Source: an uncultured Lentisphaerales bacterium (lineage in GTDB: Bacteria; Verrucomicrobiota; Kiritimatiellia; RFP12; UBA3636). Taken from it: a stretch of DNA of 54,125 bases. The translations under genes and the position numbers were made by a program. The stretch is from contig CAYOPG010000004.1 in assembly GCA_964405775.1 (NCBI GenBank), positions 1-54,125 of the forward strand. Reading direction: 5' to 3'. Below the pieces are notes generated by a model, which saw nothing but the letters and a program-made list of their open reading frames with translations, was not told the DNA's origin and made no database searches. This document shows, in pieces, positions 19,135-48,384 of the stretch; positions within the stretch are counted from its first letter, which is position 1; the number at the start of each line of letters is the position of its first letter.

Positions 19135-20252
19135 GACAGAACCTTGGTTATGCAACGGGCGATGCCGTCAATAAATTGTTCTGGCCCGAACTTCTCCGCA
19201 TGGCGCCGAATTGCAGCGGAGTCGAATTCTGTTTGTGAGCAGCGTATCACCGCGTCCTCTAAACTGTCGGATGTCTGTTCGGAGAAGAACACTCCCGAGA
19301 CGCCGTCGGCGACGGTTTCGAGTGCGCCTCCGCGGGCGTACGCCACAACGGGACGGCCGCAGGACTGAGCCTCTAATGGCACTATGCCGTAGTCTTCTTC
19401 CCCGGGGAAGACTAGAAGGCGGCAATTGCGATACAGGGCTAGGATCTCATCGTCTGAGAGGCGCCCTGTTATTTCGACCGTAGGACCTGCCATGGCAAGA
19501 AGTTTGTCGTAGCATCCTCCTGAGCCCACGACCTTCAAATTCCATCCTTTTTTTGTGTAAAGTTCGACCGCGAGATCGATGCGTTTGTAGGGGACAAGCG
19601 CAGAGACTATCAGGTCGTAGTCTGCCGATGGGCCGCCTTCGGGATTTGGTGTGCAGCGCGCCGTGTCGACTGGCGGGTACACGACCTCCGAATCACGTCC
19701 ATAAAACCGTTTTATGCGGTCTGCCACATGGTTGCTTATTGCAACAAATAGATCCACCTCGCCGGCGGTTTTGCGATCCCATCTGCGAAGTCTGGCCAAA
19801 AGCGGTTTTGCGGCGGCTGCTTTCATTTTCGAGTCGCCGAAATACTCGTCAAAAAACGTCCAGGCGTATCGCATTGGAGTGAAACAAATGCAGAGGTGTT
19901 TTGCGTTTTTTCTTTTCCGGAAGCTTTTTGCGACGCAGTGGCTCGTGGTGATTAGGAGGTCTGCGTCTTGTGGTTTTAGCGATCGCGCCGCCGCCGGCAT
20001 GATCGGCAGAGCGTTTCTGTAGTATTTGGAAATCCCGGGCAGCTTGTTAAGGAAAGACGGTCGGATTTTATGCGCGTTTATTATGTCCGACACTGCATCG
20101 CGGTTGTAAATGAGCGTCGAAACAGGCGCGTCTGGGAAAGCTAGGCACAGATATTCGAAAACGCGTTCTCCGCCGCGCATTCCGGTTAACCAGTCGTGGC
20201 CAAGTGCGACGCTATGTCCTGCCGCCGCCGCGTATAATTTATTGGTTGTCAT
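19131..20252 (-). CDS. Glycosyltransferase family 4
   Basis: HDWLTGMRGGERV, SALVPYKRIDL, EDYGIVPLEAQSCGRPVVAY. Confidence 0.92.
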   Translation of the reverse strand: MTTNKLYAAAAGHSVALGHDWLTGMRGGERVFEYLCLAFPDAPVSTLIYNRDAVSDIINAHKIRPSFLNKLPGISKYYRNALPIMPAAARSLKPQDADLLITTSHCVAKSFRKRKNAKHLCICFTPMRYAWTFFDEYFGDSKMKAAAAKPLLARLRRWDRKTAGEVDLFVAISNHVADRIKRFYGRDSEVVYPPVDTARCTPNPEGGPSADYDLIVSALVPYKRIDLAVELYTKKGWNLKVVGSGGCYDKLLAMAGPTVEITGRLSDDEILALYRNCRLLVFPGEEDYGIVPLEAQSCGRPVVAYARGGALETVADGVSGVFFSEQTSDSLEDAVIRCSQTEFDSAAIRRHAEKFGPEQFIDGIARCITKVLS

Positions 20253-20976
20253 CTGCAGCGGTGTCCTTCGCCTGCTTGCGCTGGCGCCGTGCGTCGGGCG
20301 GGACGCCTTTTATGGCGCGGATTCCTCCGATGACGAAGGCGCATATTTCGCGTGTAAAATGTTCCGCCTCCTCTTCCGTGGGTTTGTCGTTTCGGAAGAG
20401 GTTCTGCCTCGCGTTACGGTTGACTGTCAAAGCACTGAACTGGCTGTGTATCGCGAGGATGCAGCACCCGACCTGAAAGTCAGTTACATACGGGCCCATC
20501 ATTCGACGCAATCTTTTTTCGAGCTCCTGGATTCTGGGTGCCAGATGCTCCGAGAGGACTTCTGCGGAGATGGGGGATGGGTCGGTGATTTCGTTGGATA
20601 TAAGGCGGCGCAGCAGGCTTTTGGGGCCGGACTCGAAGACGGACAGCACGCATATTCTCAGGTAGTTGTAAAGCCATTCGCGGTCTTCATCCACGGTGAG
20701 ATCCAGCGAATCCGTTTCGCCTATTGCGTGTTCCACGCCGTAATCCCACACCACTTTGTAGAGTCCCTTTTTCCCTCCGAAATGGTAGTTTACGGCGGCG
20801 ATGTTGGCGTTGGCCTTTTTGCAGATATCCTGAGTGCGTGTGTTTCTGAATCCGAATTCAGCGAACTGCGTGGCGGCCACTTCGAGAAGGCGGTCTTTAG
20901 TCGATTTATCGTTACCGTGCTTTTTCCCCGGAGATTTGCCACGGCTCCCATCAGTTTTAGATAAAGTTTTTGTCAT
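20239..20976 (-). CDS. TetR-family regulator (YbiH/CecR-like, DUF1956 C-domain)
   Basis: FAEFGFRNTRTQDIC..ANANIAAVNYHFGGKKGLY. Confidence 0.88.
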   Translation of the reverse strand: MTKTLSKTDGSRGKSPGKKHGNDKSTKDRLLEVAATQFAEFGFRNTRTQDICKKANANIAAVNYHFGGKKGLYKVVWDYGVEHAIGETDSLDLTVDEDREWLYNYLRICVLSVFESGPKSLLRRLISNEITDPSPISAEVLSEHLAPRIQELEKRLRRMMGPYVTDFQVGCCILAIHSQFSALTVNRNARQNLFRNDKPTEEEAEHFTREICAFVIGGIRAIKGVPPDARRQRKQAKDTAADDNQ

Positions 20977-20998
20977 TCAAGGCCTTTTCGGTTGCCAG

Positions 20999-21502
20999 CT
21001 ACATATTGGTTATCAGGTCTACCAGTCCTTTTTCTCCGACAAATGTGTTGCCTCTTATGAAGCTCACCACAGTGAAGTAAAGCAGAGGCAGTAGGGGTGA
21101 GAGACGCAGCAGAGTGAGCCAAACTCCGACACCTTTGCTTTCCCTATGCACCTGCCTTGCGCCGGCCAGCATTGTCCAGCTCATAAGCACGACCATGGTA
21201 GCAATGAAAATTCCTATCATGGCGAGGGTCTTTAATGACTGGTCAGCTTGAGCCACGATGTTTTCCACAGGTGTGCTTATCATCCAGCTAGACCAAGCTA
21301 TGTTTGCCACAATGAGCAGAATGCATGAGCTTGAAAACCACCCCTGCTTGGTGAACGAGCGGTCTGTTTCGAAAACCAGAAATTCGATCAGGTAGCATGA
21401 AACGCACAGAACAGCGATCGGCGAAATGAATACCAATTCGCGCAGTACCTCTCCTGCCGCGACTATCACCGGAAGCCACATCTGTTCTGTTGTTGAAATC
21501 AT
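20999..21502 (-). CDS. Hypothetical integral membrane protein (~4 TM)
   Basis: Fills intergenic space, several hydrophobic segments, no recognised family. Confidence 0.5.
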   Translation of the reverse strand: MISTTEQMWLPVIVAAGEVLRELVFISPIAVLCVSCYLIEFLVFETDRSFTKQGWFSSSCILLIVANIAWSSWMISTPVENIVAQADQSLKTLAMIGIFIATMVVLMSWTMLAGARQVHRESKGVGVWLTLLRLSPLLPLLYFTVVSFIRGNTFVGEKGLVDLITNM

Positions 21503-21597
21503 GTCAAGTCTGTACGGGGGTTGAAAGCCTCAAACTAACGCCTACCATCAGGCAAGCGCAAAGATTTTTATCGGCGTCAAGTCTACACCAGAACACT

Positions 21598-22383
21598 CTA
21601 CCAAGGCAACTTTAAATCGATGAATTCGAAAGGCAATTTAAAATTCCGTTGTAAAAACTCACCTACAGCCTTGACCCCGAACCGCTCAGTGGCGTAGTGT
21701 CCAGCCGAAATTACATTTACGCTTTCGTGTTTGGCGGTATTATAGCCTTCGAGGTTCATTTCCCCTGTTATGAAGCAATCAAGCCTTTCCGCCGCCGCCT
21801 GAGAAACTTCGCCCGCGGCGCCTCCGCTGACGATGCCCACGGTTTGCACCATTTCAGAACCAAACTGCAACGCGTGATGGGTGCCGTCCGGTGTGATGGC
21901 ACGTACTCTGGCGTGAAGCTGGCTAAATGGAATAGCTTCCGGCAATCTTCCTTTGCGGCCTATTAGGTTGCCGTGGTAGTTGCAGAACCCTGCCACATCC
22001 ACCAGTCCAAGCGCGGCGGCGATCTGCGCATTATTGCCCAGCACCGGATGTGCGTCGATTGGGAGGTGGGCTGCGTACAACGCGATGTCGTTATTTATCA
22101 GGAAAGATACGATCTCGTAGTTACTGCCTGATATTTTAGCCAGAGAATCGCCCCAACTGATGCCGTGGTGCACGAGACAGAGGTCGGCACCTTTGTCCTT
22201 GGCGGCGCGAAAAAAGTCGAGCGAAGCGTCAACTCCGCAGCAAATTCTAGAGACGGCGCCGCTGTTGGAGACTTGCAGCCCGTTGTGGGAGCTGTCTGTG
22301 AAATCAGCTATGCGGAGCTCCGCGTCCAAGGCGTCGGCGACATCTCTGGTTCTGGCGATCATTGGTTTATCTTGCTTATCCAT
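21598..22383 (-). CDS. Nif3-like/YbgI dinuclear metal protein
   Basis: NGLQV, VHHG, AHLPIDAH...GNN, GHYATE. Confidence 0.92.
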   Translation of the reverse strand: MDKQDKPMIARTRDVADALDAELRIADFTDSSHNGLQVSNSGAVSRICCGVDASLDFFRAAKDKGADLCLVHHGISWGDSLAKISGSNYEIVSFLINNDIALYAAHLPIDAHPVLGNNAQIAAALGLVDVAGFCNYHGNLIGRKGRLPEAIPFSQLHARVRAITPDGTHHALQFGSEMVQTVGIVSGGAAGEVSQAAAERLDCFITGEMNLEGYNTAKHESVNVISAGHYATERFGVKAVGEFLQRNFKLPFEFIDLKLPW

Positions 22384-22835
22384 ATGCTCGTCGCCGCGGC
22401 GCTGAAGGCGATGCCGGTGAACATCCCCATAAGCACCTCGATGCGCGTGTGGCCGAGCAGCTCCTTGAGCCGCTCCTGCTTAAGGCGATGCTGGGTGAAG
22501 AGTTCGCGTATGATTTCGTTCAGCACCGCCGCCTGTTGGCCGGTTGCGCGGCGAACGGTCGAGGCGTCGAACATGGTTATTATGGCGTAAACTGCCGCAA
22601 TCGCGAAGATTGGCGATGCAAACCCCTCGGTGATCCCAAGCGAGGTTGCGAGGCCTGAAACCGTGGCTGAGTGGGCGCTGGGCATACCGCCTGTGCTGAC
22701 TAGATAATGGAGCCTTACACGGCGGGTTTTGAGGTAGGCCAGCAACATCTTTATGCATTGTGCCAGACACCACGAAAAAAAGGCGCAGAAGAACCATAGG
22801 TTCCGCGGGAATTCAGAAATGTTTTGTACTACCAT
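22359..22835 (-). CDS. Divergent PAP2 family protein (DUF212)
   Basis: GGMPSAHSA, DAS.VRR..G.QA..LN, LKELLGHT..EV. Confidence 0.9.
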   Translation of the reverse strand: MVVQNISEFPRNLWFFCAFFSWCLAQCIKMLLAYLKTRRVRLHYLVSTGGMPSAHSATVSGLATSLGITEGFASPIFAIAAVYAIITMFDASTVRRATGQQAAVLNEIIRELFTQHRLKQERLKELLGHTRIEVLMGMFTGIAFSAAATSIWISKINQ

Positions 22836-22901
22836 CAAAAGTTCTTAGTATTTAAAGTGTGAAAAATGTGGGCTTAGACGCCAGTCATACGTCATTGTCG
22901 A

Positions 22902-24317
22902 TCAATACGCATTTCGAACGGCAGAGATGGTCCGCAGCAGGATTTTAAGATCCAGCGCGATAGACCAGTTCTCGAGGTACCATAGGTCGTGCCGTAGGCG
23001 CTCCTCTATGGAGGTGTTGCCGCGCAGTCCATGAACCTGCGCCCATCCGGTGATACCGGGCAGACACACATGGCGTCGCATATAGTGGTTGATCTCAGAG
23101 GAGAACTGTTCCACGAAGTTTGGCCTCTCAGGCCGCGGCCCGACAAGGCTCATGTCTCCCTTCAGGACGTTCCAGAATTGCGGCAGTTCGTCCACATTGT
23201 GGGATCGCATCCACGCTCCGATCTTCGTCCGCCGTGGATCGTTTTCATCGGCGAACACCGCTCCGGTTTCCGCCTCGGCGTCCGGCTTCATGGAGCGTAG
23301 TTTGTACATGCGGAAAGTTTTGCCACCGTAGCCGCAGCGTTCCTGCTTATAGAAAACGGGGCCGGGTGATTCGCGCTTTATGAGGATCGCCATGACGAAG
23401 ATCAGCGGGGCGGAGAACAGGAGACCTACCGCACCACCGACGATGTCTTCGATTCGCTTTGCCACTCTGTTGCCAAATTTGTCGAGCGGGCTGCGCCTTA
23501 GTCCCAGCAGCGGGATGTCGTCAACAGTCTCTACCTCAACGGAGCATGTCATAGTTAGAAACATGTCGGGCACGATGTTGAAACGTATCAGTCTGCGTTC
23601 GCACTCGAGCGCGATTTCGGAAAGTCGTTTTCTGGGGATTTCCGGGTCGGCTACAATGACCTGTGTGATATTAGGCGTTTTTTCGAGAATACTCTCGAGA
23701 TCGCTCTGTTCGCCCAGTACGTTTCCCGGCGGTATCGACGGATGCAAAGAATCGTTTGAACCGGTCTTGAGGACTCCGCTCACCTTTACTCGCAGCCGCA
23801 CATCGCGTTCAAAACACCGCACCAAATGCGCGGCCGTGGCATCGGTGCCAATTATTACAATCAGATTTTCCGCTGTCGCCTTTCGCGCTGCTGATATTTC
23901 AGCTTTGAAAAGCAAAGCGCGTTCCAGCACCACAAGAACTGCGAAGCATGGAAAAAAAAGCAGTATCACGCCGGTAGAGACTGCGTAGTAGTTCTTTACG
24001 AGACCCGAAATGACCAGCATCCCTACCGTAGCAGTTAATGCGCCCCGCACGAGCCGAGGCAGTTTCGCCGGGAACGTTCCACGCTGTGGACGCCGGTAGA
24101 GCCGAAGTGAGCGCATGGAAGCATACACTAGAACCACCATGAGCAACACCATGGGCATGTAATGCCCGTAAAGCTCATCGGGACGGCCGAACCTGACGTC
24201 AAACCATCCGCTGTCGAACCTGATCCAGATTGCCAAGTACACCGCAACCAGAGCCGCCGCCGCATCTGCGACTACGGCTATGACCGCGTTGTATGAATCT
24301 GCTGGGTTTTTAGGCAT
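22902..24317 (-). CDS. wcaJ: Undecaprenyl-phosphate hexose-1-phosphate transferase (WcaJ-type)
   Basis: N-terminal TMs, KR..DIV, YKLRSM, DELPQFWNVLKGDMSLVGPRPERP, PGITGWAQV, DLWYLENWS. Confidence 0.9.
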   Translation of the reverse strand: MPKNPADSYNAVIAVVADAAAALVAVYLAIWIRFDSGWFDVRFGRPDELYGHYMPMVLLMVVLVYASMRSLRLYRRPQRGTFPAKLPRLVRGALTATVGMLVISGLVKNYYAVSTGVILLFFPCFAVLVVLERALLFKAEISAARKATAENLIVIIGTDATAAHLVRCFERDVRLRVKVSGVLKTGSNDSLHPSIPPGNVLGEQSDLESILEKTPNITQVIVADPEIPRKRLSEIALECERRLIRFNIVPDMFLTMTCSVEVETVDDIPLLGLRRSPLDKFGNRVAKRIEDIVGGAVGLLFSAPLIFVMAILIKRESPGPVFYKQERCGYGGKTFRMYKLRSMKPDAEAETGAVFADENDPRRTKIGAWMRSHNVDELPQFWNVLKGDMSLVGPRPERPNFVEQFSSEINHYMRRHVCLPGITGWAQVHGLRGNTSIEERLRHDLWYLENWSIALDLKILLRTISAVRNAY

Positions 24318-38249: not shown

Positions 38250-40199
38250 ATGAACAAATGTTTGCGCGTTTTGAGCGCGGCCGCGATTGCGCTGCCGTGC
38301 TGGCTTGGCTTTGCTCCTGAATTCGCCTCTGCATCAACCGGAAGCTTCACCTTCGACGATATCCACTACTGGGTGGGCGAGGGAACGAACCGGGCCGTGG
38401 TACTAATAGACTACGACTTCCGTGGACGCGCCGCCGGCGTATCGAACTCCCTCGCATACGGTTTCCGCTGGAATGGCGAGATAACGCAACTCGAGGCGTT
38501 GCGCTTGATAGGCGGGGAGGACAAACGCCTCCACTTCTCCACATATGAAAGCTGGGGAAGCACATTGCCGGAAGCCTTCGCCTATGACAGAAAAGGCAAC
38601 GGAGGTGCGTTCGCCCTTTCAGATGGCCTGAAGACCGATCCAGGGGACATAATCGAGAGCTGCAACTCGGATACGGGATGGAACTTCTACTGGGCGACCA
38701 CTGAGTTGACAAACTCGACCACTTTCACGGAAAACTTCCGGTTCATTACAAGGGGGGGAATCGCCTCGGAATATATGATCCCCGATTCTTTTTTAGGGCT
38801 GATGTTCCTACCCTGGGCAACGACTTGGAATGAGAGTATCGGGGAGTGGGACGCGGAATGGAACCCGCTGCCTTACACCTATCCTGAGACAGGCGATTAT
38901 ATAGATTTCATCCCTTCAATGCCTGTGGCAGCGGAGTCGCCATATGGGTTTAGAGTTTTTGGTTTCGAGTCGGACACCAGCGCTTATTTCGCAGGGAATT
39001 ATATCCATCCAGAAGCGGCGGTTGGACGTCCGGCGGCATCAACTCTGCCTAAGGATGCCGATCAATACGACGGGCCCGCCATTCCGTTGACTCCACTCAT
39101 GGGCGCCATGGGCACAAACCAGGTGCTAAGACTCGTCGATATTTATGATGATTTCGGAGACCTAGAAACACGCGGGTGCATCACGATTGAGTTCGACCAT
39201 CCCGTGGTGGATGATCCGAACAACCCGTGGGGTCTTGATTTCATAGTCTTTGGCAATGCCTTCTACCAGGGCAACGCCGGAAGTGAAAACATGACTGGTT
39301 TTGAAAATCCCACGAACGTTATTGTCAGAAAAGTTTCCACGAATAATCCTGAGATCCTCGTCGCCGAGCCGGGGCTTGTGGCGGTGTCGCAGGACAGGGA
39401 AACGTGGTTTACTTCAGACACGTGGTTGCACGCTGACTCTTTCGCTCCGACGCTTGGCTACAAGCTCGACCCTGCAAACGCCAATCCAGCCCTTTTTGCC
39501 GGCAACAAGTGGTGGGGCGCCAAGACCGATCCGACATATCCGGTTCCGCCGTGGGGAGAGGAGTCTATTGCGCCGGGCACAAACCTCGCGCAAATTGCCA
39601 CGTGGTACAACGGATCTGCAGGTGGCGCAGCTTTCGATATTTCAAGTCTTGACCTGCCAGCTACGCACAACGGAAGAAAGTGGTTCAAGTATGTTCGAAT
39701 TACGAACAATGCCAACCCGGACGATGGTAGTTCCTCATGCGAAATCGATGCCGTTGCGGACGTCTATCCCGACACGCCATACGGAGTTTACGCTAAAGAG
39801 CTCTACGCTTGGACTGAGCTGCCGTCGAAAGGAAGAAAAACCGCGCTTGCCGCAAACGGTCGGCCGAACTTTGTGAACTTCGCATTGGGGGAGGACCCTG
39901 CCGCTACACTTGAGATAAGCGACTTCGTCGTACGTGATGGGCGTCTATGGTTCTCTTTCCCTGTCTGGAAGGCGGACTGGAATATCAACGACATGCTTGA
40001 ATCAGGCATAGATTTCAGCGTCCGCGCCAAGAGCAAATTGACGAACGCGGGATCCGGCAACAACGTATTTGGTTTTGCCAGTTTCGAGGGGTTGACCACA
40101 AACTCGGTTGACGGCACATACACCGCGACGATTTCCGTCGACGAGCTGCCGACGGCCCAAAACGCGTTCTTCCGTCTTGGCATTTCGGCTGAAGAGTAG
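38250..40199 (+). CDS. Secreted multi-domain protein under the B12 riboswitch; candidate corrinoid-binding surface protein
   Basis: Sec signal ending ASA; domain 1 FTFDDIHYWVGEG.NRAV; domain 2 ITIEFDHP..D.PNNPWGLDFIVFGNAF...EPGLVAVSQD...GGAAFDISSL..YVRI..EIDAV; C-terminal FFRL-type end. Confidence 0.7.
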   Translation: MNKCLRVLSAAAIALPCWLGFAPEFASASTGSFTFDDIHYWVGEGTNRAVVLIDYDFRGRAAGVSNSLAYGFRWNGEITQLEALRLIGGEDKRLHFSTYESWGSTLPEAFAYDRKGNGGAFALSDGLKTDPGDIIESCNSDTGWNFYWATTELTNSTTFTENFRFITRGGIASEYMIPDSFLGLMFLPWATTWNESIGEWDAEWNPLPYTYPETGDYIDFIPSMPVAAESPYGFRVFGFESDTSAYFAGNYIHPEAAVGRPAASTLPKDADQYDGPAIPLTPLMGAMGTNQVLRLVDIYDDFGDLETRGCITIEFDHPVVDDPNNPWGLDFIVFGNAFYQGNAGSENMTGFENPTNVIVRKVSTNNPEILVAEPGLVAVSQDRETWFTSDTWLHADSFAPTLGYKLDPANANPALFAGNKWWGAKTDPTYPVPPWGEESIAPGTNLAQIATWYNGSAGGAAFDISSLDLPATHNGRKWFKYVRITNNANPDDGSSSCEIDAVADVYPDTPYGVYAKELYAWTELPSKGRKTALAANGRPNFVNFALGEDPAATLEISDFVVRDGRLWFSFPVWKADWNINDMLESGIDFSVRAKSKLTNAGSGNNVFGFASFEGLTTNSVDGTYTATISVDELPTAQNAFFRLGISAEE

Positions 40200-40204
40200 A
40201 ATGA

Positions 40205-40990
40205 GTGGTGAAAACGGTGAGAAAACCTTTCAGACAGCCAGGAGACATAATTGACCTCTCAAGCGCGGGGTTCACTCTGTTAGAGCTGTTTGTGGTTATA
40301 GCGATAGCGGGAATTCTTATGACACTTACCGTCGGCGCAGTCGGCAAAGCGAGAACTGCCTCCCAACGCGTTAAATGCGCGTCCAATCTCCGCAACATGG
40401 TTGTTGCCGCCACCGCGTATGCGGAAGACCACAACGGACGCTTCCCGTGGGCGTCGCGCAAGGTCAAGGGCTACCAATCTTGGTGCTGGGACTTTGTTAT
40501 ACCCTCTGGCGGCAAACCCCAGCCCGGAGTGATGTGGAGCGGCTACGGGATCAATTCCGTGTTGCAATGCCCGTCGTTCATAGACGGCAGAGCGAACTGG
40601 GAAGGTGACCCTTACACCGGCTACAATTACAACTCCAGCTTCATAGGGAAGGTGGAGGGGGATCCGGCCAAGCGGCAAGCGCCGGCTACGCTCGCCCAGA
40701 TAGAAGATCCTGCGCGGACGGCAATGTTTGGCGACGGCCAATACGGCGGAGGCGCCAACAAATTCATGCGCTCCCCAAAAGCGAACAGAGACAACGACTT
40801 CTCGGGTAAGTATGTGCGAGAATCTGGCACACAGGGGTTCCGCCACGGCGGCAAGACCAACGTGGCATTCGCCGACGGTCATGTAGAGGCGCTGTCGCAA
40901 CCATACCAATATGGCGGAGCCGAGGGGTTCACGGCACCCGATTGCGGTTTCATTTCTGCCGACAACAGCCTCTACTCGCTGGATAAATAA
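40205..40990 (+). CDS. Prepilin-type N-terminal cleavage protein with H-X9-DG C-terminal motif
   Basis: G/FTLLELFVVIAI class III signal (Gly-1, Phe+1, Glu+5); RHGGKTNVAFADGHV. Confidence 0.92.
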   Translation: MVKTVRKPFRQPGDIIDLSSAGFTLLELFVVIAIAGILMTLTVGAVGKARTASQRVKCASNLRNMVVAATAYAEDHNGRFPWASRKVKGYQSWCWDFVIPSGGKPQPGVMWSGYGINSVLQCPSFIDGRANWEGDPYTGYNYNSSFIGKVEGDPAKRQAPATLAQIEDPARTAMFGDGQYGGGANKFMRSPKANRDNDFSGKYVRESGTQGFRHGGKTNVAFADGHVEALSQPYQYGGAEGFTAPDCGFISADNSLYSLDK

Positions 40991-41021: not shown

Positions 41022-42356
41022 TTAATTCATGGGTTCTGACGTCCATCTGCGCTTGATATACCAAGCGGTCAGACCCCCAAAAACAGCGGCTAAAAGTGCA
41101 GTTGTTAACAGGTAACTCCTGGCACCACCTGCGATTCCATGGTTTTTCACCGCGAATGCGGTTACGAGCCATCCGGGGATGATTACGGCTATGATGCCCA
41201 CCAGACAGACTGTCTGTCGCCGCATGATAATTAGGACGGATTGGAGTATGTAATATACTGCCAGCAGGGCGCCCCCGGCTATGAGGATGCACAGAGTTCC
41301 CCTGTGGTGCGTCAGATCAATTCCATAGAACAGCGTTAGGAGCTGACTTCCAAAAGCATAGGAGAAGAAAAGCGTGGGCAGCGAGAAAGCCACCACCCAA
41401 AGGATTTGGATGTAAATCTGTCTGAGGAATCCGCGCCTGTCGCCATTTTTATAGAGCCAGCTCATACTGGTCAGAGCGGGGCGCAGCACGAATCCCGATA
41501 GTAGGCTGACCAGAAATGCCAGCATGAACAGAGCGTTGTATTCGGCCATCTTGCTTTCGTCGAGATGTCGGTCAATCGCGTACTTGGACATGTTGTTGAC
41601 GTACATGAACAGGAACGCGTTCAGAGCAAGAGGCAGACATGAGATGAGAAGCGCGCGCTGCGCACTCCAGTTGGATATCCTGACATTGCGTATGAACGAC
41701 CGGATCAGAACGCCGTCGGACAATATAAAAAGACCCCAGTAAATCAGCACCATCAACGCTAATGAGACAAGCATGTCCTTTGTGAACCACAGCGCCACGC
41801 AGAACAGGATCATAGGAAGAAACGTTTTATAGAACACGCCCTTCGAGGCTATATCAAGCCTCCCAAACTGCTGGTACCGGCCTTCCAGAACGTCCGAAAA
41901 AGACTCTCCAGATCTCAGCACCATGAGTAGAATGAGTGCGGCAGCCTTGTCATTCCATCCGTCGCCGAACGCGATCAGCCCGACAGCGGCTGCCATCATT
42001 AATGCGACAGTGATGATTCTTGACACGAAATAGTCGTCAAACGAGAAGACCTCGTCGACGTCCGACACCTGATATGTGCGCATTTGAAAAAGCCCAATGG
42101 TCACCAGTTGCTGGGATATCGCCATTGCTATGCTGAACACGCCTCCCCAATAAGGCCCCCGGTCTCCAAGAATGCGCAATATGGAAACAAGCAGGATGAA
42201 CGAGCTGCCGCAGAAGCATCCGCCTGAGAAAGCGGTCCAGAAATAGGTTCGCGCTTGAAGGTTGCCTGGTTTTTCAAGTTTGAAAAAGCGCCGGACCAAA
42301 TTCCCCGCCCAAGTGGGGTTCCCCATTGGAAGTGGGAGACGAGAGTTGTTGTCCAT
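41022..42356 (-). CDS. Wzx-type polysaccharide flippase (MOP family)
   Basis: About 12 TM segments; FQMRTYQVSDV, SKYAIDRHL, YNALFM. Confidence 0.8.
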   Translation of the reverse strand: MDNNSRLPLPMGNPTWAGNLVRRFFKLEKPGNLQARTYFWTAFSGGCFCGSSFILLVSILRILGDRGPYWGGVFSIAMAISQQLVTIGLFQMRTYQVSDVDEVFSFDDYFVSRIITVALMMAAAVGLIAFGDGWNDKAAALILLMVLRSGESFSDVLEGRYQQFGRLDIASKGVFYKTFLPMILFCVALWFTKDMLVSLALMVLIYWGLFILSDGVLIRSFIRNVRISNWSAQRALLISCLPLALNAFLFMYVNNMSKYAIDRHLDESKMAEYNALFMLAFLVSLLSGFVLRPALTSMSWLYKNGDRRGFLRQIYIQILWVVAFSLPTLFFSYAFGSQLLTLFYGIDLTHHRGTLCILIAGGALLAVYYILQSVLIIMRRQTVCLVGIIAVIIPGWLVTAFAVKNHGIAGGARSYLLTTALLAAVFGGLTAWYIKRRWTSEPMN

Positions 42357-42369
42357 TCTTTTGGGTTGC

Positions 42370-43635
42370 CTAGTTGTACTTTGAAGGGTAAAGCCACTTT
42401 TCGCGGATCAAGGCATATCGTTCGTATTCCGGCGAGTATTTGAACCAGGGGAATCGTGGAAATTTGAAGACTTTGCCACGGTGGTCGGAAATGAGGTAGT
42501 CGGGGTTGTATTCACCGTTCAAGACGCGTATGCAAGCTGTCTTGGTTTCCGAGGCCGTTCCCTCGACCATTTTTAGCGCCGCTAGGAATGTGCGTCCGCT
42601 GCCCGATTCGTCGTCCACCAGCAGTATCTTTTTGCCTCGTATCGAGTCCGGGCAAGATCCACCGACCACCGGCTCGTTCCCGTACAAGGCGTCACGCAAA
42701 TAACAGCCGCCGATTATGTCGTCTGTGTCCAGATTCCCGATGCGTAGCTGCCGGTGTCTGATACTTATCGTTTCGAACGGCAGATCCAGCGCCTTGGCAA
42801 CATGAAAAGCCGGGAATAGACCGCCGCTTGCTATGCCGACCACCATGTCTGGTTTGTATCCCGATGTTTTTACATTCTCTGCGAGCTTGCGGCAAAGGTC
42901 TTCGACTTCAGCCAACGAGAAGAAGCTCCCGCCGGTAAGGCGGAAAATGGTGCGTTGCATTGCGGTGAAGCACCGTTCGGGCAGGTTAAGCGGGGAGTAC
43001 TTGCCCCAGATGGATTTGATGCGCAGGCAACCCCGGTAAAAATATGAATCGCGCTTTGCGCGTATGTTTTCCAGCTTCCAGGGGAAGTTCTCGCGCGTGG
43101 GAAGTTCGGCGAGTTTGAAAGTGGTTCTCCCGATTTCCTCCGGGAAGTGCGCGTCGGCACCGTAGAGCGCCAGTTTGCCGTGGCGTGCGCAGTCTTTGGT
43201 GGCGCGGCGGTCGTGCCGCGCGGAAAAAGTGCGGGCGTTGAAAACTTCCACGGCGTCGGTCTTCGAAAATGCGGTCTCGTATATATCAGCCTTGAGCGAA
43301 GAGGGGCGCCATGCGTCGTACGGATGTGGAAGAACCACGATCCCTCCCTGTTCCCGAATCGCCGCCATCGTCTGTTCAAGACCCTTGCCCGGCTCGATCT
43401 TTTCCTTTAGAAAGAGACCTATAACTTCGCCGGAGGTTGTCATTATCTCTTCTCCTACCACGGTGTGGAATTCAGGAAAGCGTTCGCGAAACCGGAGCGC
43501 CCCCTCAATGGTGTTATGGTCGGTAATGAAGAGTGTGTCTATTCCGGCGGCATTGGCTCGCCGCGCAAGCTCTTCGAGCGTTATGCGCCCGTCGCCGGAA
43601 TAAATCGTGTGGACATGGAAACAACATTTCTTCAT
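42370..43635 (-). CDS. PHP phosphoesterase domain fused to type I phosphoribosyltransferase domain
   Basis: FHVHT, TDHN, GEE, PHPYD, EVFNAR, DAH (PHP); VVGIASGG, ILLVDDESGSGRT (PRPP loop); ATG 43635 preferred. Confidence 0.85.
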   Translation of the reverse strand: MKKCCFHVHTIYSGDGRITLEELARRANAAGIDTLFITDHNTIEGALRFRERFPEFHTVVGEEIMTTSGEVIGLFLKEKIEPGKGLEQTMAAIREQGGIVVLPHPYDAWRPSSLKADIYETAFSKTDAVEVFNARTFSARHDRRATKDCARHGKLALYGADAHFPEEIGRTTFKLAELPTRENFPWKLENIRAKRDSYFYRGCLRIKSIWGKYSPLNLPERCFTAMQRTIFRLTGGSFFSLAEVEDLCRKLAENVKTSGYKPDMVVGIASGGLFPAFHVAKALDLPFETISIRHRQLRIGNLDTDDIIGGCYLRDALYGNEPVVGGSCPDSIRGKKILLVDDESGSGRTFLAALKMVEGTASETKTACIRVLNGEYNPDYLISDHRGKVFKFPRFPWFKYSPEYERYALIREKWLYPSKYN

Positions 43636-43658
43636 AATTTTATTGCGCTTTTGATCGT

Positions 43659-43688
43659 ATTTTAGCTTTATCCGCATTGACATGTCAA
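43659..43688 (-). promoter_or_regulatory. Putative promoter for PHP-PRTase/flippase unit
   Basis: Minus strand TTGACA (43688-43683), 18 nt, TAAAAT (43664-43659). Confidence 0.5.
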
Positions 43689-43743
43689 TTGATTGGGCAA
43701 TTTGTTATACTACTTGCTTAGATTCTTTGGTAAACTCTGAAAA

Positions 43744-44931
43744 ATGAAGACATTTGATACAGACATGCATGAAAAAACTGAAGCAGATGTAATACTAAGC
43801 GTTGTTTTGCCGTGCCTCAATGAGGCAAAGACGCTTGAAAAGGCCATCGGGACGGCAGCCGAGCTCATTTCATCAACAGGGATGAAAGGCGAAATCGTTT
43901 TATCCGACAACGGCTCGACCGACGGCTCTCGTGAAATAGCCGAAAGAGCGGGAGCCCGTGTGGTATCTGCAGAACGAAAAGGTTATGGGTTTGCCCTTAT
44001 GTCCGGCATCAGAGCCGCGCGTGGCAGCATAATAGTCATGGGCGACGCTGACGCTACGTACGATTTCCGTGAAGCCAAGCAGCTTGTCGAAGCGGTCGAC
44101 GCTGGTGCCGATCTCGCCATGGGTAGCCGGCTTCGTGGCAACATTGAGGAAGGCGCCATGCCTTACCTCCATCGTCATCTTGGTACTCCCGTGCTCACAT
44201 GGCTTATACGCCGCTTCTTTGGCTTGAGCATAACGGATTGCAATTGCGGCATGCGGGCGTTCAGCAAAAAAGCGTTCGAGAGGATGGACCTGATTTCGGG
44301 AGGCATGGAATTCGCATCTGAAATGCTGATCAAGGCGGCGTTGTGCGGCATGAAGGTTGTTGAATACCCCATATCGCTTCTGAAGGACACGCGCGACCGC
44401 GCGCCGCACCTCCATACATGGCGCGACGGCTGGCGCCACCTGCGTTTCATCCTTATTTTTGCACCGCACGTCACATTCTTCATTCCGGGAATGGTACTTT
44501 TCATACTGTTTGGTATTGAGACGCTTCTGCTCTCTTTTGGAGTTGTCACTGTGGGAGCTTTTTTGTTCGACTACCATCACCTTTTCTACTCTGTGCCGTT
44601 GTTCATAATAGGATACCAGATGCTTTGGTTCGCAAGGCTCTCTGAGCAATTCCGCAACTTCTCGGGGTATGACACGGTACAAAGACACAGGTACGGCAAG
44701 TTCAATATGGAACTATGGCTCTTGGTTGGCGTGGCTATGGCAATTGGAGGGCTGGCGATTTTCGGCATAGTTTTCGCTTCATGGATAGCCTCGGGTCACG
44801 GGGAGTTATTCGCTATCAGGAGGGGTGTTGCCGGGCTCGCCTTATTGCTCCTGGGGGTCACGACAATTATGAACTCCTTTATGATGAGCATGCTGGAGCT
44901 TAATCTGGATCGTGGGGCAGGCGGTAAATGA
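43744..44931 (+). CDS. GT2 glycosyltransferase, polyprenyl-phosphate glycosyltransferase-like, with C-terminal TMs
   Basis: PCLNE, DNGSTDGS, MGDADATYD, GSR, GMEFASEM, TWRDGWRHLRF. Confidence 0.85.
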   Translation: MKTFDTDMHEKTEADVILSVVLPCLNEAKTLEKAIGTAAELISSTGMKGEIVLSDNGSTDGSREIAERAGARVVSAERKGYGFALMSGIRAARGSIIVMGDADATYDFREAKQLVEAVDAGADLAMGSRLRGNIEEGAMPYLHRHLGTPVLTWLIRRFFGLSITDCNCGMRAFSKKAFERMDLISGGMEFASEMLIKAALCGMKVVEYPISLLKDTRDRAPHLHTWRDGWRHLRFILIFAPHVTFFIPGMVLFILFGIETLLLSFGVVTVGAFLFDYHHLFYSVPLFIIGYQMLWFARLSEQFRNFSGYDTVQRHRYGKFNMELWLLVGVAMAIGGLAIFGIVFASWIASGHGELFAIRRGVAGLALLLLGVTTIMNSFMMSMLELNLDRGAGGK

Positions 44932-45884
44932 CCGCTGAGCGCTATCCCACGATATCGGTCGTAATGCCAACGTACAACGGCGAGAGCCATCTCCGCGCCG
45001 CCCTCGATTCGTTGGAGTCTCAGAAGCCCTCCGGGGTCCCGTTCGAAGTTTTGGTGTCCGATGATGGTTCCTCGGACGCTACTCTTCATATTTTGAAGGA
45101 AGCCACGGAGCGCTTGCCGTTACGCGTTATCGACGGGCCGCGCAAACGCAACTGGGTTGCCTCCACCAACGCGCTCCTCCGCGAGGCGCGTGGCGAATAT
45201 GTTACCATGCTTCATCAGGATGACATTTATTTTCCTGAGCGGTTCGCAGAACTGGCCTCAACGGCGGCGGCATATCCAAACATTTCTGTCTTCTCGCACC
45301 CGACGCGTTTTATCAACTCGGCGGGGCGTGCCGTCGGCACATGGAAGCCACCCATGCCAACCGGCAAGCGACTGTCGCCGCACATGTGGTTTCCGCCACT
45401 GATGGTTCAGAATAATTTCGCGGTGCCAGCGATGATGTTCCGCCGCCGCCTATCCGACGAACTTGGGGATATGGACGAGACGCTGCCTTACACCGCAGAT
45501 TGGGAATACTGGCTCCGTTTTGCCGCCTCCGAGAGAATATTCATACTGCCGAAGCCGCTTGCCGGTTTCCGCATTCATGGCGCCTCTCAGACCGTGGCTT
45601 TCGCCGAAAAAGCCGACGAATACGAACGGAATCTGCGCGAAGTTGTGGTGCGCTCCGAACGTACGGCTTCGAGGTTAAACCTGAAAAAGCGCTACATTGA
45701 AATGGCTCGGTTTGGCGTCGATGTTAATCTGTGGCTCGCTGCCAAGGCCTCCGGCAGGAGCTTCCCTGTTTCGAAAGTGCTCGGAGGTGTTTTCGACGTC
45801 GGGCTTCCCGGCGCATTTTCGTATATAAGTTTATCCCGCATGATTCCCCGTTCTCTCGCTCGTTTGCGCGCGGGGAGGTCGTGA
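44928..45884 (+). CDS. GT2 glycosyltransferase (soluble)
   Basis: SVVMPTYN, DDGSSD, LHQDD, DWEYWLR. Confidence 0.88.
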   Translation: MTAERYPTISVVMPTYNGESHLRAALDSLESQKPSGVPFEVLVSDDGSSDATLHILKEATERLPLRVIDGPRKRNWVASTNALLREARGEYVTMLHQDDIYFPERFAELASTAAAYPNISVFSHPTRFINSAGRAVGTWKPPMPTGKRLSPHMWFPPLMVQNNFAVPAMMFRRRLSDELGDMDETLPYTADWEYWLRFAASERIFILPKPLAGFRIHGASQTVAFAEKADEYERNLREVVVRSERTASRLNLKKRYIEMARFGVDVNLWLAAKASGRSFPVSKVLGGVFDVGLPGAFSYISLSRMIPRSLARLRAGRS

Positions 45885-45960: not shown

Positions 45961-48384
45961 ATGAACGGAAATGTGGAACGCGCGAAAAAAACCGTCGCGT
46001 GTATAGTGCCTGTGCTGTCCGTGGTAATAGCTGCGTTGCTGCTCCAGTTCCCGTTGGCCACCATGGTGCCGCTGAGCAATCACGAAGTATTGTATGCTTG
46101 GCAATCGGATCTGGTGCGCAGATTTTTCCCGGTGTTCGTATTGACTGTTGTTGCAATCTCTGTTTGCCTCTGGATTTTGAGCGGACGGGTGACACGCGCC
46201 TCACAGCCAGGTCGAGCACAACACGTTGCGAACAGCCTGCGTCCGCTTGCATGGCTCCCTCTTTGCGTGGTGCTCAGCCAGTGCTCCGTGTGGCTCGGCG
46301 CCACCGTTTCGGGGCTGATAATCGCCTTCGGTCCCGCGCTCATCCTCGCGCTGTGCGCCGAAAGGCTGGTTGGCGATTCAATCCGGCAAGACAAGTCGGC
46401 CGGTGTGCGCTACTGGGCGGTGCACTTTATTGTTTATTCTGCGTTCATCCTGGGCGTTGGCCTGTATTTCAATAATGAGGTGGGAGAGCAGATGGGCGAT
46501 GAAAAGCACTACATGATCATAGCTCAGAGCCTGTTCGAAGATGGCGACATGGATTTGGCGAGAGAGATGAAGGATTTTATTCCCTCCGCCCACCCTGACC
46601 GCCGTCAAATGCTAAACTACTCGCATCTGCGCGAGAACAAAACAGGCCAGCTGTACAGCTACCATGCGTTCGGACTCCCCATTCTCGCTTTGCCTTTTTG
46701 GTTTACGGGTTTTTTCGGGCGTCAGCTGGTGCTTGCCCTGATTGCCGGGTTCACCATTGTCGGCTGCGGAGCCGCGTGCCATGCTGCCGGGGCTTCGCGC
46801 CGGGCATCGGCCATCGTGGCTTGGGGGTTAGGCCTCACGTTTGCAGGCGCCGTGAATGCCATCCGTTTCCTGCCTGAAACTCTGGGTTGTGGACTGGTCG
46901 TTTGGGCGTTCTGGAGTATCCTCGCCCAAAAAAAACGCCCTTGGGTCTCCTCAATCGTCGCCGCAGTATGCTGCGGCTACTTGCCATACGCGCATACCCG
47001 TTTCGCTCCCGTGAGCCTTATGTTGGCGTTATTCTTTGGGCTTGAAGGACTCTTCGGCATGAGGTTGGAAAAAATGCGCGTCAAGGTTGCACGTCTGACG
47101 GTCTTTTCGTTGATTTACGCCATCTGCGGTTTTACCCTGCTTTGGTTTCACAGCTGGATGTTTTCCGGCTCTGGAGCATACGAATACGACAAAATTCTGT
47201 TTTCGTACCCGAAGGCCATGTGGGCCGTTATAGTGGAGCACCGCGGCTTGTTCAGCGTGATCACACCGCTTGTGTGGTACCTTGCCGCCGCGCCGCATGT
47301 GATAATCACGGAGCGCCAGTACCGCCGCCATGGCTTGGAGGCGCTTGCGGTTGTGCTGGTTGTCCTCGCTACTTCGTGTTCGAACTCGGCAGCGCTGGGC
47401 GGACGTTGCATACCGGGCCGCTATTTCTTAACGGCGGTCCCGCTTCTGCTCCCGTCTGCAGCGCTAGCGCTTTCAAAATGCCGATCTTCGGCTCGTTTCT
47501 GGTATTACTCCCTGTCGGCAGTTTCCACGCTCATCCTTTTCGCGGCACTCGTGCTAGTCAAACGCGGCAACTTTTTCTCTGTTCTGCCGCTAGACAGCCT
47601 GCGTGGCTATGTGGGCTTCCATCTGATATGGCAGCCCTTGTCTTCGACGTTACACTCAGTTTCCCCGGAGGCATTCACGTACACAACGGCATACGTACTG
47701 TTTCTGATCGCAGTGTCGTTTCTGTTAATGATCATACACTTGAATGGTGCAATTCTCGCCGTATCGACTATCATGCTACTTGGAGCGGCACTGGTTTCCG
47801 GTGCCAAGGTGAATGCCACTGAAAACGTAGAGCGTGATAGAATACTGGGCAGAATGACAGTATATTGGGGAAGCTTGCAAAAGGTCGGCGACTCGGGAGG
47901 TACAATTTTCGAAACACTCGGCATTGTGGAAAAACTCGGGAATCGAAATCCTTTTTACTTGCTTTCACGAGACGTGGAGGGGCTTGGCCCTGGAGGCCGA
48001 ATCAAAGTGGCTGACATCCCTCCCAACGACTGGGATGGGCGCGGCTACAGTTGGAAGGGTCTGCATACCCAAATCCGCCATAACGTTGACTCTACGATTG
48101 CCATAAGGGTCATAGGACAGACCTTGTCGGGCTCCGCTGTCTTCGCCGTGCGTCAGGGTGCGCTCACGTTGGAAGACGGCGTGAGGTGCGAACCTGGCAA
48201 AATCGACTTCACTTGGATTGTGACGACTCGGCGAGGCCGCGGCTGGGTTAATCCTGTAGTTCGGATAGAGGGTGAACACGCAGCCGTGAGAATCGATCAC
48301 GTATACGTGGTGCCGTACTCCGACCCCATGGGCAAGGGAGGGCTTCCGCTAGATCACGCCTCCACTATTCGTGATCTGCGCTGA
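45961..48384 (+). CDS. Large polytopic membrane protein, probable GT-C fold glycosyltransferase
   Basis: Many TMs; GDEKHY..IAQSL.EDGD.DL first-loop motif, PET, RY motifs; soluble C-terminal domain. Confidence 0.6.
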   Translation: MNGNVERAKKTVACIVPVLSVVIAALLLQFPLATMVPLSNHEVLYAWQSDLVRRFFPVFVLTVVAISVCLWILSGRVTRASQPGRAQHVANSLRPLAWLPLCVVLSQCSVWLGATVSGLIIAFGPALILALCAERLVGDSIRQDKSAGVRYWAVHFIVYSAFILGVGLYFNNEVGEQMGDEKHYMIIAQSLFEDGDMDLAREMKDFIPSAHPDRRQMLNYSHLRENKTGQLYSYHAFGLPILALPFWFTGFFGRQLVLALIAGFTIVGCGAACHAAGASRRASAIVAWGLGLTFAGAVNAIRFLPETLGCGLVVWAFWSILAQKKRPWVSSIVAAVCCGYLPYAHTRFAPVSLMLALFFGLEGLFGMRLEKMRVKVARLTVFSLIYAICGFTLLWFHSWMFSGSGAYEYDKILFSYPKAMWAVIVEHRGLFSVITPLVWYLAAAPHVIITERQYRRHGLEALAVVLVVLATSCSNSAALGGRCIPGRYFLTAVPLLLPSAALALSKCRSSARFWYYSLSAVSTLILFAALVLVKRGNFFSVLPLDSLRGYVGFHLIWQPLSSTLHSVSPEAFTYTTAYVLFLIAVSFLLMIIHLNGAILAVSTIMLLGAALVSGAKVNATENVERDRILGRMTVYWGSLQKVGDSGGTIFETLGIVEKLGNRNPFYLLSRDVEGLGPGGRIKVADIPPNDWDGRGYSWKGLHTQIRHNVDSTIAIRVIGQTLSGSAVFAVRQGALTLEDGVRCEPGKIDFTWIVTTRRGRGWVNPVVRIEGEHAAVRIDHVYVVPYSDPMGKGGLPLDHASTIRDLR

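Follow-up and report, generated by a model that had tools for sequence, protein, structure and literature searches.

Known PRPP-dependent systems and the locus under study

Ribofuranose enters bacterial glycans by a non-Leloir route from phosphoribosyl pyrophosphate (PRPP), worked out in 2022–2024 for two enzyme types. In the gPRT-PRP systems a phosphoribosyltransferase (PRTase)-like transferase uses PRPP and a HAD phosphatase removes the 5-phosphate (CriT-CrpP of Bcs3 in Haemophilus influenzae type b, Hib; PMC10299916); Salmonella STM0726 requires a GT-A partner (PMC11294581). For alpha-linked pentofuranoses three components act together: a PPPRS of the UbiA type that carries a HAD PRP, a flippase of the MATE kind, and a GT-C bearing a carbohydrate-binding module (CBM) (PMC11127046). 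The first-pass annotation of the DNA analysed here had stated that known glycan ribofuranosyltransferases use PRPP with a HAD phosphatase, and PMC11127046 and PMC10299916 bear this out. The window, a stretch of 54,125 nucleotides of contig CAYOPG010000004.1 from an uncultured Lentisphaerales bacterium, carries on its minus strand (42370..43635) a gene in which a PHP phosphoesterase domain is fused to a type I PRTase domain. No description of a PHP-PRTase enzyme in glycan synthesis was found in full-text literature searches. The fusion is read here, tentatively and at a little under an even chance, as an enzyme of PRPP-dependent phosphoribosyl transfer followed by 5-dephosphorylation, giving ribofuranose on a polyprenyl-phosphate-linked sugar.

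The gPRT-PRP enzymes (7shg of T. composti, the Klebsiella prototype, STM0726, Bcs3) share with the fusion the proposed chemistry, a cytoplasmic location, a fused phosphatase and a place in glycan clusters; STM0726 has its GT-A partner, and a soluble GT2 accompanies the window fusion. In gPRT/CriT the 'DD' function is split over two loops (D680/E818), helical bundles are present and the phosphatase is HAD (PMC10299916), whereas the window fusion is a canonical PF00156 type I PRTase with the vicinal DD kept and a PHP phosphatase. The ORF15 PPPRS-PRP, ORF14 MATE and ORF12 GT136 proteins of Citrobacter youngae combine a phosphatase-fused PRPP enzyme, a MOP flippase and a CBM-bearing GT-C, with a polyprenyl-monophosphate carrier (PMC11127046). 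ORF15 is an integral-membrane UbiA protein with HAD, while the window fusion is soluble and has PHP; the flippase is MATE in Citrobacter and PST/Wzx-like in the window; two conserved GT2s stand in the fusion module beyond the three Citrobacter components. In the module the counterparts would be the fusion, a putative flippase of the MOP superfamily and an 807-aa membrane protein, tentatively GT-C-like, whose CBM-like domain recalls GT136. One related locus (L091) also lies beside an ABC-transporter-type O-polysaccharide (O-PS) cluster, as in the Citrobacter arrangement. In mycobacteria, DPPRS (Rv3806c) and Rv3807c place a PRPP-derived pentofuranose on polyprenyl phosphate and dephosphorylate it for use by Emb/Aft GT-C enzymes; there the UbiA-type transferase and the phosphatase, which belongs to another family, are distinct proteins. 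EmbB, AftA and AftD are the top, though weak, fold matches of the 807-aa protein.

Each half of the fusion also has nucleotide-acting counterparts. Archaeal purine PRTases (P. horikoshii 1vdm; S. solfataricus HGXPRT 4z1o/4zfn and APRT 4trb) have the same fold, pyrophosphate (PPi) loop, PRPP loop and FPW motif. The fusion differs from them in G345, in a loop about 13 residues longer with an invariant DTDD, in an extra N-terminal helix and a YSPEY extension, and in being PHP-fused and glycan-linked. TrpH/YciV-type PHP proteins (7ug9/9etk, 2yb1, 2anu) have the same fold and trinuclear metal-ligand set as the fusion; they cut 5'/3' phosphates of nucleotides or RNA, whereas the proposed substrate of the fusion PHP is a 5-phosphoribosyl glycoside. 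Systems of a GtrB/CsbB/ArnC-type GT2, a flippase and a GT-C, and archaeal AglJ-type dolichyl-phosphate (Dol-P) pathways, have the same backbone as the module; the classical multi-component systems move a single sugar and have no PRPP enzyme and no extra soluble GT2. Lacking HAD, UbiA and a split-DD gPRT core, the fusion falls outside the gPRT-PRP, three-component and mycobacterial systems, but it resembles them in functional layout and in the kinds of genes around it. Its association with a Wzx-type flippase and a second GT2 suggests a small oligosaccharide built on a monophosphate carrier.

Gene structure of the fusion

The minus-strand open reading frame (ORF) 42370..43683 is open for 437 aa. 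With the start at 43635 (MKKCC...) the product has 421 aa and the gene spans 42370..43635, stop codon included, as judged from the ORF, Pfam, the AlphaFold2 model and homologue starts. This start is favoured because homologues begin with MKC.FH.H and because an 11/12 sigma-70-like site overlaps the alternative upstream ATG at 43683. The AlphaFold2 model (pLDDT 87.2, pTM 0.82) is a confident two-domain model, domain packing included. The single ORF with a complete PHP metal set and a canonical PRPP loop, as first annotated, stands: both domains score above the Pfam cut-offs and their motifs are invariant. A doubt raised at the same time, that relatives might have two separate genes since an internal methionine (FTAMQR) precedes the PRTase part, is removed. 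That methionine is V, L or G in fusion homologues, and split pairs of PHP and PRTase genes were not found among the homologues. Homologues as distant as 40% identity are still fused, so the fusion is one protein, not two genes.

The gene order first described is borne out. The stop codon of the fusion lies 13 nt from the start (42356) of a 444-aa membrane protein. A 108-bp spacer separates the fusion from a divergent GT2 (43744-44931); a second GT2 (44928-45884) overlaps the first by 4 nt, and the 807-aa membrane protein (45961-48384) is next.

PHP domain

The PHP phosphoesterase domain comprises residues 1-185 (43081..43635, minus strand), delimited from the translation, invariant columns, Foldseek and NCBIfam. 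Pfam PHP (PF02811) matches residues 6-91 with 39.7 bits against a cut-off of 26.4; PHP_C matches residues 143-180 weakly. The HxH, D/H, E, H, H/N and DxH ligands that the PHP superfamily (TrpH/CehA-McbA-like) carries on a (beta/alpha)7 barrel are all found, and the metal set H7, H9, D15, D39-H40, E63, H104, N133, D161 and H163 is invariant in 38 sequences, PHP-only relatives included. As read from the sequence, the PHP half has the complete ligand set of a trinuclear site. The NCBIfam CehA/McbA-type domain gives 64.3 bits, under its 80-bit cut-off; the NCBIfam neighbours are the CehA/McbA, RNase RNM and pAp-phosphatase PHP groups, and the CpsB-type family is absent from these matches. Foldseek matches of the N-terminal half are TM0559 2anu, RNase AM 7ug9/9etk, BAD_1165, 3e0f and Cv1693 2yb1. 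No HAD family match was obtained for the fusion in Pfam and NCBIfam scans; its phosphatase half is PHP.

The PHP relatives nearest to the fusion are often joined to GT4 glycosyltransferases. Many of these (P0046-P0118, e.g. P0050, P0074, P0079, P0087) are proteins of about 575-670 aa with an N-terminal GT4 and a C-terminal PHP of the same subfamily, 35-41% identical to the window PHP half; examples are annotated Solirubrobacteraceae. They may be glycoside-phosphate synthase/phosphatase pairs. Their identification as MshA with the missing mycothiol phosphatase was rejected: the MshA model gives 88 bits against a cut-off of 462, and the GT4 half is generic. In P0109, P0119 and P0120 (about 425 aa) dephospho-CoA kinase (CoaE) is fused to the same PHP subfamily. 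The neighbourhoods of 29 PHP-only relatives show mostly PmbA/TldD synteny, with sporadic sugar-epimerase, BacA and LPG_synthase_TM genes. L069 (Clostridium), considered as a full-length fusion, was discarded; its match covers PHP only.

PRTase domain and linker

The type I PRTase domain comprises residues 241-421 (42373..42915, minus strand), delimited by Pfam, end-to-end alignment to 1vdm/4z1o and Foldseek. Pfam Pribosyltran (PF00156) matches residues 243-363 with 51.1 bits against a cut-off of 26.3. NCBIfam places this half among assorted PRTases, with weak matches that include the regulators PyrR and GfcR. Foldseek matches of the C-terminal half are Sulfolobus HGXPRT, 1vdm and 4trb (APRT), with probability 1.00, and the PDB sequence search agrees (1vdm at 1.4e-9; 4z1o). 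The PRTase-fold protein 5vog, with bound ppGpp, is among the fold matches of the fusion.

The PRPP-binding loop KILLVDDESGSGRT (residues 336-349; 42589..42630, minus strand), placed by translation and alignment to 1vdm/4z1o, is canonical: it follows the pattern LLVDD..G.T, with L338, D341, D342 and G347 invariant. The PPi loop GIASGG is invariant across the fusions. G345 (G/T in the clade) aligns with the Asp of VDDVSDTGKT in 1vdm and of VDDVADTGET in 4z1o. The Asp of DDxxD is the catalytic Asp of 6-oxopurine PRTases. The fusion does not have this DDxxD signature of HGPRT, XGPRT and HGXPRT, and the Asp is missing from the whole PRTase subfamily, not from the fusion alone. The position aligned with the Lys of 'AMKPW' in 1vdm, presumably the O6-binding residue of 6-oxopurine PRTases, is an invariant leucine (L372); the base-stacking aromatic position is ambiguous in the alignments.

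The extended flexible or hood loop QLRIGNLDTDDIIGGCYLRDALYGNEP (residues 296-322; 42670..42750, minus strand) is recognised from the translation as an insertion of about 13 residues relative to 1vdm. Its residues Q296, D303, D305, R314 and G319 are invariant across the 12 fusions compared, whereas 15 standalone relatives do not conserve them. Further fusion-specific invariants, R370, L372 and D384, lie beyond the PRPP loop, in the strand and the hood that follow it. By analogy with type I PRTases, these fusion-specific invariants would sit in elements that face the acceptor, and the extended loop is a candidate acceptor-binding or catalytic-base element.

The linker (42916..43080, minus strand) is formed by two amphipathic helices (residues ~198-210 and 218-233), assigned from DSSP of the model and conservation. 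R201, R205, G211, Q227 and R228 are conserved in fusion homologues. The second helix is common to the standalone PRTase relatives, and the peak hydrophobic moment of the whole protein lies at 220-233. The linker helices were considered as a membrane anchor and set aside as not decisive: the 220-233 helix recurs in standalone relatives that are soluble, and helices of this kind pack against globular domains as well.

Relatives and distribution

The same two-domain architecture is found in seventeen 90%-identity clusters, 45-100% identical, and both active-site motif sets are invariant in fusion homologues down to 40% identity. The fusion is rare: with the linker and PRTase as query, 1.84 billion representatives of 50%-identity clusters, searched exhaustively, yielded three fusion representatives (P0005, P0130, P0131). 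Full-length fusions occur in at least seven metagenome-assembled genomes (MAGs; one genome per species, 185,579 species scanned), labelled Kiritimatiellia, Lentisphaerae/Lentisphaerales, 'Verrucomicrobia UBA1418' or unclassified. A scan of metagenomes gave at least one fusion locus, a duplicate of L001, among the matches listed. Many metagenomes from anaerobic digesters, bioreactors, wastewater and sludge contain near-identical DNA. RNA-labelled runs hold just short fragments of the fusion and GT2 genes; these show at most low-level presence, not operon structure.

Outside the fusions, the PRTase half is closest to standalone proteins 200-210 aa long, with 27-38% identity. They share with the fusions the N-terminal helix, the extended hood loop and a C-terminal RFPW..YSP.Y motif. 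One such standalone set (P0132-P0146; loci L005, L087-L089) belongs to DPANN-type archaea, one annotated Pacearchaeota; its members have a triple-acid PRPP loop VDD[DE], have no DDxxD Asp and are annotated 'hypoxanthine PRTase'.

A protein of 420 aa from a 103-kb metagenome contig (P0240) belongs to the same PRTase subfamily (30% identity over 178 aa, motif R.P..KYSPFY). It carries at its C-terminus a HAD-IA phosphatase whose best PDB matches are sugar-phosphate and phosphoglycolate phosphatases. P0240 reads as a second, independent PRTase-phosphatase fusion. One subfamily joined independently to two unrelated phosphatase superfamilies, HAD in one case and PHP in the other, supports a logic of phosphoribosylation followed by dephosphorylation.

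Genomic neighbourhoods of the fusion

Thirteen distinct neighbourhoods were compared: the window, L173, L013, L091/L009, L004/L007, L008/L174-176, L002, L001, L010, L011, L012, L090 and L172. A check set beforehand, on homologues in glycan loci, gave a uniform answer: the fusion lies among glycan genes in 13/13, and the partners are kept while their order is shuffled. Every fusion context is a membrane glycosylation context. The GT2 with C-terminal transmembrane (TM) helices (GT2-TM) is present in 11/13, and L172 also has a membrane-anchored GT2; GT2-TM, the soluble GT2 and the 807-aa family occur together in 10/13. A Wzx-like flippase adjoins the fusion in 8 of the 13; the window-type flippase is missing from the loci with 40-45% identity, and L172 has a MOP flippase. 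Five-gene co-directional operons are seen in L002, L004/L007, L008, L173 and L174-176, a divergent arrangement in the window, L090, L001 and L010, and a convergent one in L011; the sequence of L013 ends after its GT2s. The flanking genes are unrelated between fusion loci, and the partners are kept despite shuffled order and orientation. Linkage that survives so much rearrangement argues for a shared pathway. For the region first termed a 'glycan locus', a self-contained five-gene island is the better name.

In L091/L009 the fusion and the Wzx-like gene share a 4-nt overlap. A divergent Wzm/Wzt(Wzt_C)/methyltransferase/GT4/GT2 cluster of the ABC-type O-polysaccharide kind adjoins them, and no GT2-TM is nearby. 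L091 was also considered as a pure 'three-component' system and rejected as such: its downstream 927-aa protein has one signal-peptide-like TM segment and is secreted, not GT-C. Loci of the 45%-identity clade carry bona fide PMT/PMT_2 GT-C proteins, and L001 an LPG_synthase_TM protein. L172 (41% identity) pairs the fusion with a MOP flippase of another kind (PF13440) and a GT2 that has two TM helices, and also carries a WbuX-like amidotransferase, a flavin adenine dinucleotide (FAD) oxidoreductase and a PMT_2 GT-C. The FAD amine-oxidase-type oxidoreductase (L172:5348-6640) and the WbuX-like N-acetyl-sugar amidotransferase (L172:3073-4023) lie between the fusion and the PMT_2 GT-C. The oxidoreductase is PRK07208-like with a weak UDP-galactopyranose-mutase match; a sugar-modifying, epimerisation-type step is a speculative assignment for it.

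Partner proteins of the five-gene island

The 444-aa membrane protein (41022..42356, minus strand) has about 11 TM helices by hydropathy and is named from its homologues and their Pfam matches. It has no Pfam match itself. In its family 8/18 members match Polysacc_synt (PF01943), homologues also match PF13440/PF03023, and homologues are named O-antigen/teichoic acid export protein. By transitive homology it is predicted to be a divergent Wzx/PST-type flippase of the MOP superfamily. The first-pass label 'Wzx' is thus kept as putative, by way of the homologues.

The GT2-TM protein (43744..44931, plus strand), with four C-terminal TM helices, is defined by Pfam, NCBIfam and PDB matches and TM count. 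It gives 93 bits with Pfam GT2; GT2_TM_C is found in its orthologues, and its TM helices lie at 236-380. NCBIfam matches are AglJ, Dol-P-hexose transferase, PpgS and ArnC; PDB matches are Pyrococcus DPMS 5mlz (1.5e-12), ArnC and GtrB (also 9bhc, 5ekp). The motifs PxxNE, DNGSTD and DAD (GDADATY) are present in the sequence. The protein is assigned by these matches as a polyprenyl-phosphate glycosyltransferase of the DPMS/ArnC/GtrB/AglJ type. The soluble GT2 (44928..45884, plus strand) is a GT-A Leloir glycosyltransferase by Pfam and PDB matches: chondroitin synthase, PglI 9jma (residues 9-218, the longest) and SpsA. It has DDGSSD and QDD motifs. PglI glucosylates a lipid-linked oligosaccharide.

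The 807-aa membrane protein (45961..48384, plus strand) has about 12-13 TM helices and a C-terminal beta-sandwich (~660-805) in an AlphaFold2 model with pLDDT 71, compared by Foldseek. It has no match in Pfam, NCBIfam or PDB sequences, a profile search of the PDB included. The top Foldseek matches are EmbB 7bvf_B (9.6e-3), AftA 8if8 and AftD 6wbx, then Pmt1/2 and ArnT (E 0.01-0.2); the C-terminal domain matches CBM4/35/36/61. It is tentatively regarded, from the model, as a GT-C-like transferase with a CBM-like periplasmic domain. 'GT-C', as first annotated, is kept in so far as the top fold matches are GT-C enzymes, and loosened to GT-C-like for the weakness of those matches. The family has an invariant G179-D180..H183-Y184 loop motif. 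It is rare (P0121-P0129; 9 clusters in 5.8 billion) and fast-evolving (30-61% identity). L001:6330-9845 carries a 1171-aa paralogue with 34% identity.

No initiating phosphoglycosyltransferase was found within the five-gene island. The absence of an own phosphoglycosyltransferase fits a monophosphate-linked carrier. No UbiA-type protein was found in the module with Pfam and no BY-kinase in or near it, and the window module carries no DprE1/E2 epimerase.

Proposed pathway and competing explanations

In the proposed pathway, the membrane-anchored GT2 (43744-44931) would make a polyprenyl-phosphate-hexose from a nucleoside diphosphate (NDP)-sugar. On the cytoplasmic side of the membrane, the soluble GT2 (44928-45884) and the fusion would elaborate this lipid-linked sugar: one of its hydroxyls would receive ribose-5-phosphate from PRPP through the PRTase domain, and the PHP domain would then strip the 5-phosphate to give ribofuranose. 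The product would be flipped by the Wzx-like MOP protein (41022-42356) and passed by the 807-aa GT-C-like protein to an extracytoplasmic glycan or protein acceptor. From synteny and motifs we infer the chemistry, that is PRPP as donor, an O-linked non-nucleobase acceptor, removal of the 5-phosphate by PHP, the order of the steps and the final acceptor; the acceptor is proposed from synteny alone. The more specific form, in which a canonical type I PRTase has been recruited as an O-ribofuranosyltransferase and PHP as a phosphoribose phosphatase, as a third and independent solution, with a small oligosaccharide on polyprenyl monophosphate, a Wzx-like flip and GT-C-like transfer, is unlikely, though its probability is appreciable. 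Within this recruitment reading, archaeal AglJ-type glycosylation would offer a nearer parallel to the logic of the five-gene island than the known bacterial three-component systems do. If the proposed pathway is correct, it would be known chemistry built from unrelated enzyme families.

Several results weigh against ribofuranosyl transfer by the fusion. The main counter-evidence is the gene context of the standalone PRTase relatives, since the subfamily may ancestrally handle nucleobases. Readable contexts of the standalone relatives consist of ribosomal, tRNA and translation genes of DPANN-type archaea, and no phosphatase or glycan genes were found near these relatives where contexts were readable. 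The closest characterised relatives of both halves act on nucleotides (archaeal HGXPRT/APRT for the PRTase; RNase AM and pAp phosphatase for PHP). 7shg and Bcs3 are not among the best 50 Foldseek matches, in which classical PRTases dominate. We know of no canonical PF00156 PRTase with demonstrated formation of an O-glycosidic bond. No TM segment was found in the fusion by hydropathy, and the amphipathic-helix scan gives no decisive lipid-binding element. The 807-aa protein has no Foldseek match at E <= 1e-3, and its homology to the neighbouring PMT-type GT-C proteins was rejected (hhalign probability 0.3%). The ribofuranosyltransferase first proposed is therefore kept in part: the glycan linkage and the two-step logic (synteny, P0240, the missing DDxxD Asp, the loop invariants) speak for it, and the nucleotide-enzyme resemblance of both halves and the housekeeping contexts of the standalone PRTase relatives against it.

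A rival reading is a nucleobase enzyme, in which the PRTase phosphoribosylates a base resembling a purine or pyrimidine, PHP acts as a nucleotidase or the protein serves plain salvage, and the glycan linkage is indirect, through NDP-sugar supply or a nucleoside metabolite. This is improbable. It accords with the purine-PRTase character of the best PRTase sequence and fold matches (1vdm at 1.4e-9; 4z1o), with nucleotide cutting by the PHP relatives (RNase AM 7ug9; Cv1693 2yb1, with AMP bound), with database annotation of the homologues as hypoxanthine PRTase/TrpH, and with the housekeeping contexts in which standalone relatives with the hood motif occur in DPANN archaea, organisms dependent on salvage. 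The conserved linkage to GT2-TM, GT2, GT-C-like protein and flippase over 13 shuffled neighbourhoods is left unexplained by it. In the active site, G345 replaces the purine-PRTase Asp, L372 occupies the position of the 1vdm Lys, and the fusion-specific DTDD loop is absent from purine PRTases; a nucleoside made from PRPP would also be energetically wasteful for salvage. An alternative of equally small probability is a soluble analogue of the polyprenyl-phosphoribose synthases. The PRTase would place ribose-5-phosphate directly onto polyprenyl phosphate, PHP would give polyprenyl-P-ribofuranose, and the MOP protein would flip this product for use by the GT-C-like protein, with the GT2s acting in parallel or before. 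The fusion and the MOP flippase are indeed the tightest pair (13-nt gap in the window, 4-nt overlap in L091), and L091, with an ABC-type O-PS cluster adjacent and no GT2-TM nearby, is similar to Citrobacter (PMC11127046). The weak top folds of the 807-aa protein are the polyprenyl-P-arabinofuranose-using EmbB, AftA and AftD, and its CBM-like domain recalls Emb and GT136. A GT2 could not make lipid-P-ribofuranose in the absence of an NDP-ribofuranose donor, and we know of no such donor. Such a synthase would, however, be unnecessary where GT2-TM already makes a polyprenyl-P-sugar, as predicted in 11/13 neighbourhoods (with a membrane-anchored GT2 in L172). The known enzymes for the reaction are integral-membrane UbiA proteins, and the fusion has neither a TM helix nor a demonstrated lipid-binding element.

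A regulatory or accessory protein is highly improbable. Its PRTase-like domain would sense PRPP, (p)ppGpp or a nucleotide, consistent with the ppGpp-bound fold match 5vog and the weak PyrR and GfcR matches; the invariant PRPP and PPi loops and vicinal DD go beyond the needs of a sensor, and the independent PRTase-HAD fusion argues for coupled catalysis. Its PHP domain would be a CpsB/Wzh protein-tyrosine phosphatase, a pyrophosphatase that pulls the reaction, or a lipid-phosphate phosphatase, and the protein would adjust glycan output instead of adding a sugar. PHP-family CpsB phosphatases regulate capsule synthesis in Gram-positive bacteria, which favours such a role. With no BY-kinase near the module and no CpsB-type match, and with a PHP that is CehA/McbA/TrpH-like, a CpsB-type tyrosine phosphatase was rejected for want of a kinase partner and a family match. 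Transfer of phosphoribose to a lipid-linked sugar, followed by dephosphorylation, is retained as the tentative reading.

If ribofuranosyl transfer by the fusion is true, PRPP-dependent ribofuranosylation has evolved at least three times from unrelated parts, and canonical PRTases of the nucleotide-salvage type can be retooled into glycosyltransferases. The PHP-PRTase and PRTase-HAD fusions of the 'RFPW..YSP.Y' subfamily would then be markers for pentofuranose glycans in uncultured bacteria of the Planctomycetes–Verrucomicrobia–Chlamydiae (PVC) group, which are abundant in anaerobic digesters. The reading would also give a first functional handle on the rare, unannotated GT-C-like family of about 805 aa. 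The compact five-gene cassette could serve glycoengineering.

Other features of the window

The divergent intergenic region between the fusion and GT2-TM (43636..43743, 108 bp) has sigma-70-like sites on both strands, as consensus matches only. On the minus strand TTGACA-18-TAAAAT (43688->43659, 11/12) reaches into the region upstream of the fusion start; on the plus strand ATGTCA-18-TATACT (43682-43711, 9/12) has an extended -10 TG. The two matches lie back to back within 43659-43711. The region-wide count of sigma-70-like sites is no higher than the shuffled expectation, and the position alone of these two is suggestive.

The island is flanked by HrpB (by-eye call), a DUF1559 pilin-like gene and Der (by-eye call). 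A PVC-group organism fits, because a DUF1559/N-methyl gene adjoins the island. Convergent with the flippase gene, 38250-40990 encodes a 649-aa secreted protein without family match and a DUF1559/N-terminal-methylation (pilin-like) protein. Pseudomonas pilins are pentofuranosylated (cited in PMC11127046). Adjacency to the pilin-like gene is not kept in other fusion loci. A separate glycan region (19131-24317) holds a GT4 (19131-20252) and a Bac_transf initiating phosphoglycosyltransferase with CoA_binding_3 (22902-24317); it lies about 18 kb from the module, with ParB, Opp-type ABC transporter genes and HrpB between. Two ordinary genes encode a flotillin-like FloA (12145-13197; 478 bits) and, at 14223-15890, a pyridine-nucleotide-disulphide oxidoreductase that ends in a rhodanese domain and so has a CoA-disulfide-reductase-like architecture.

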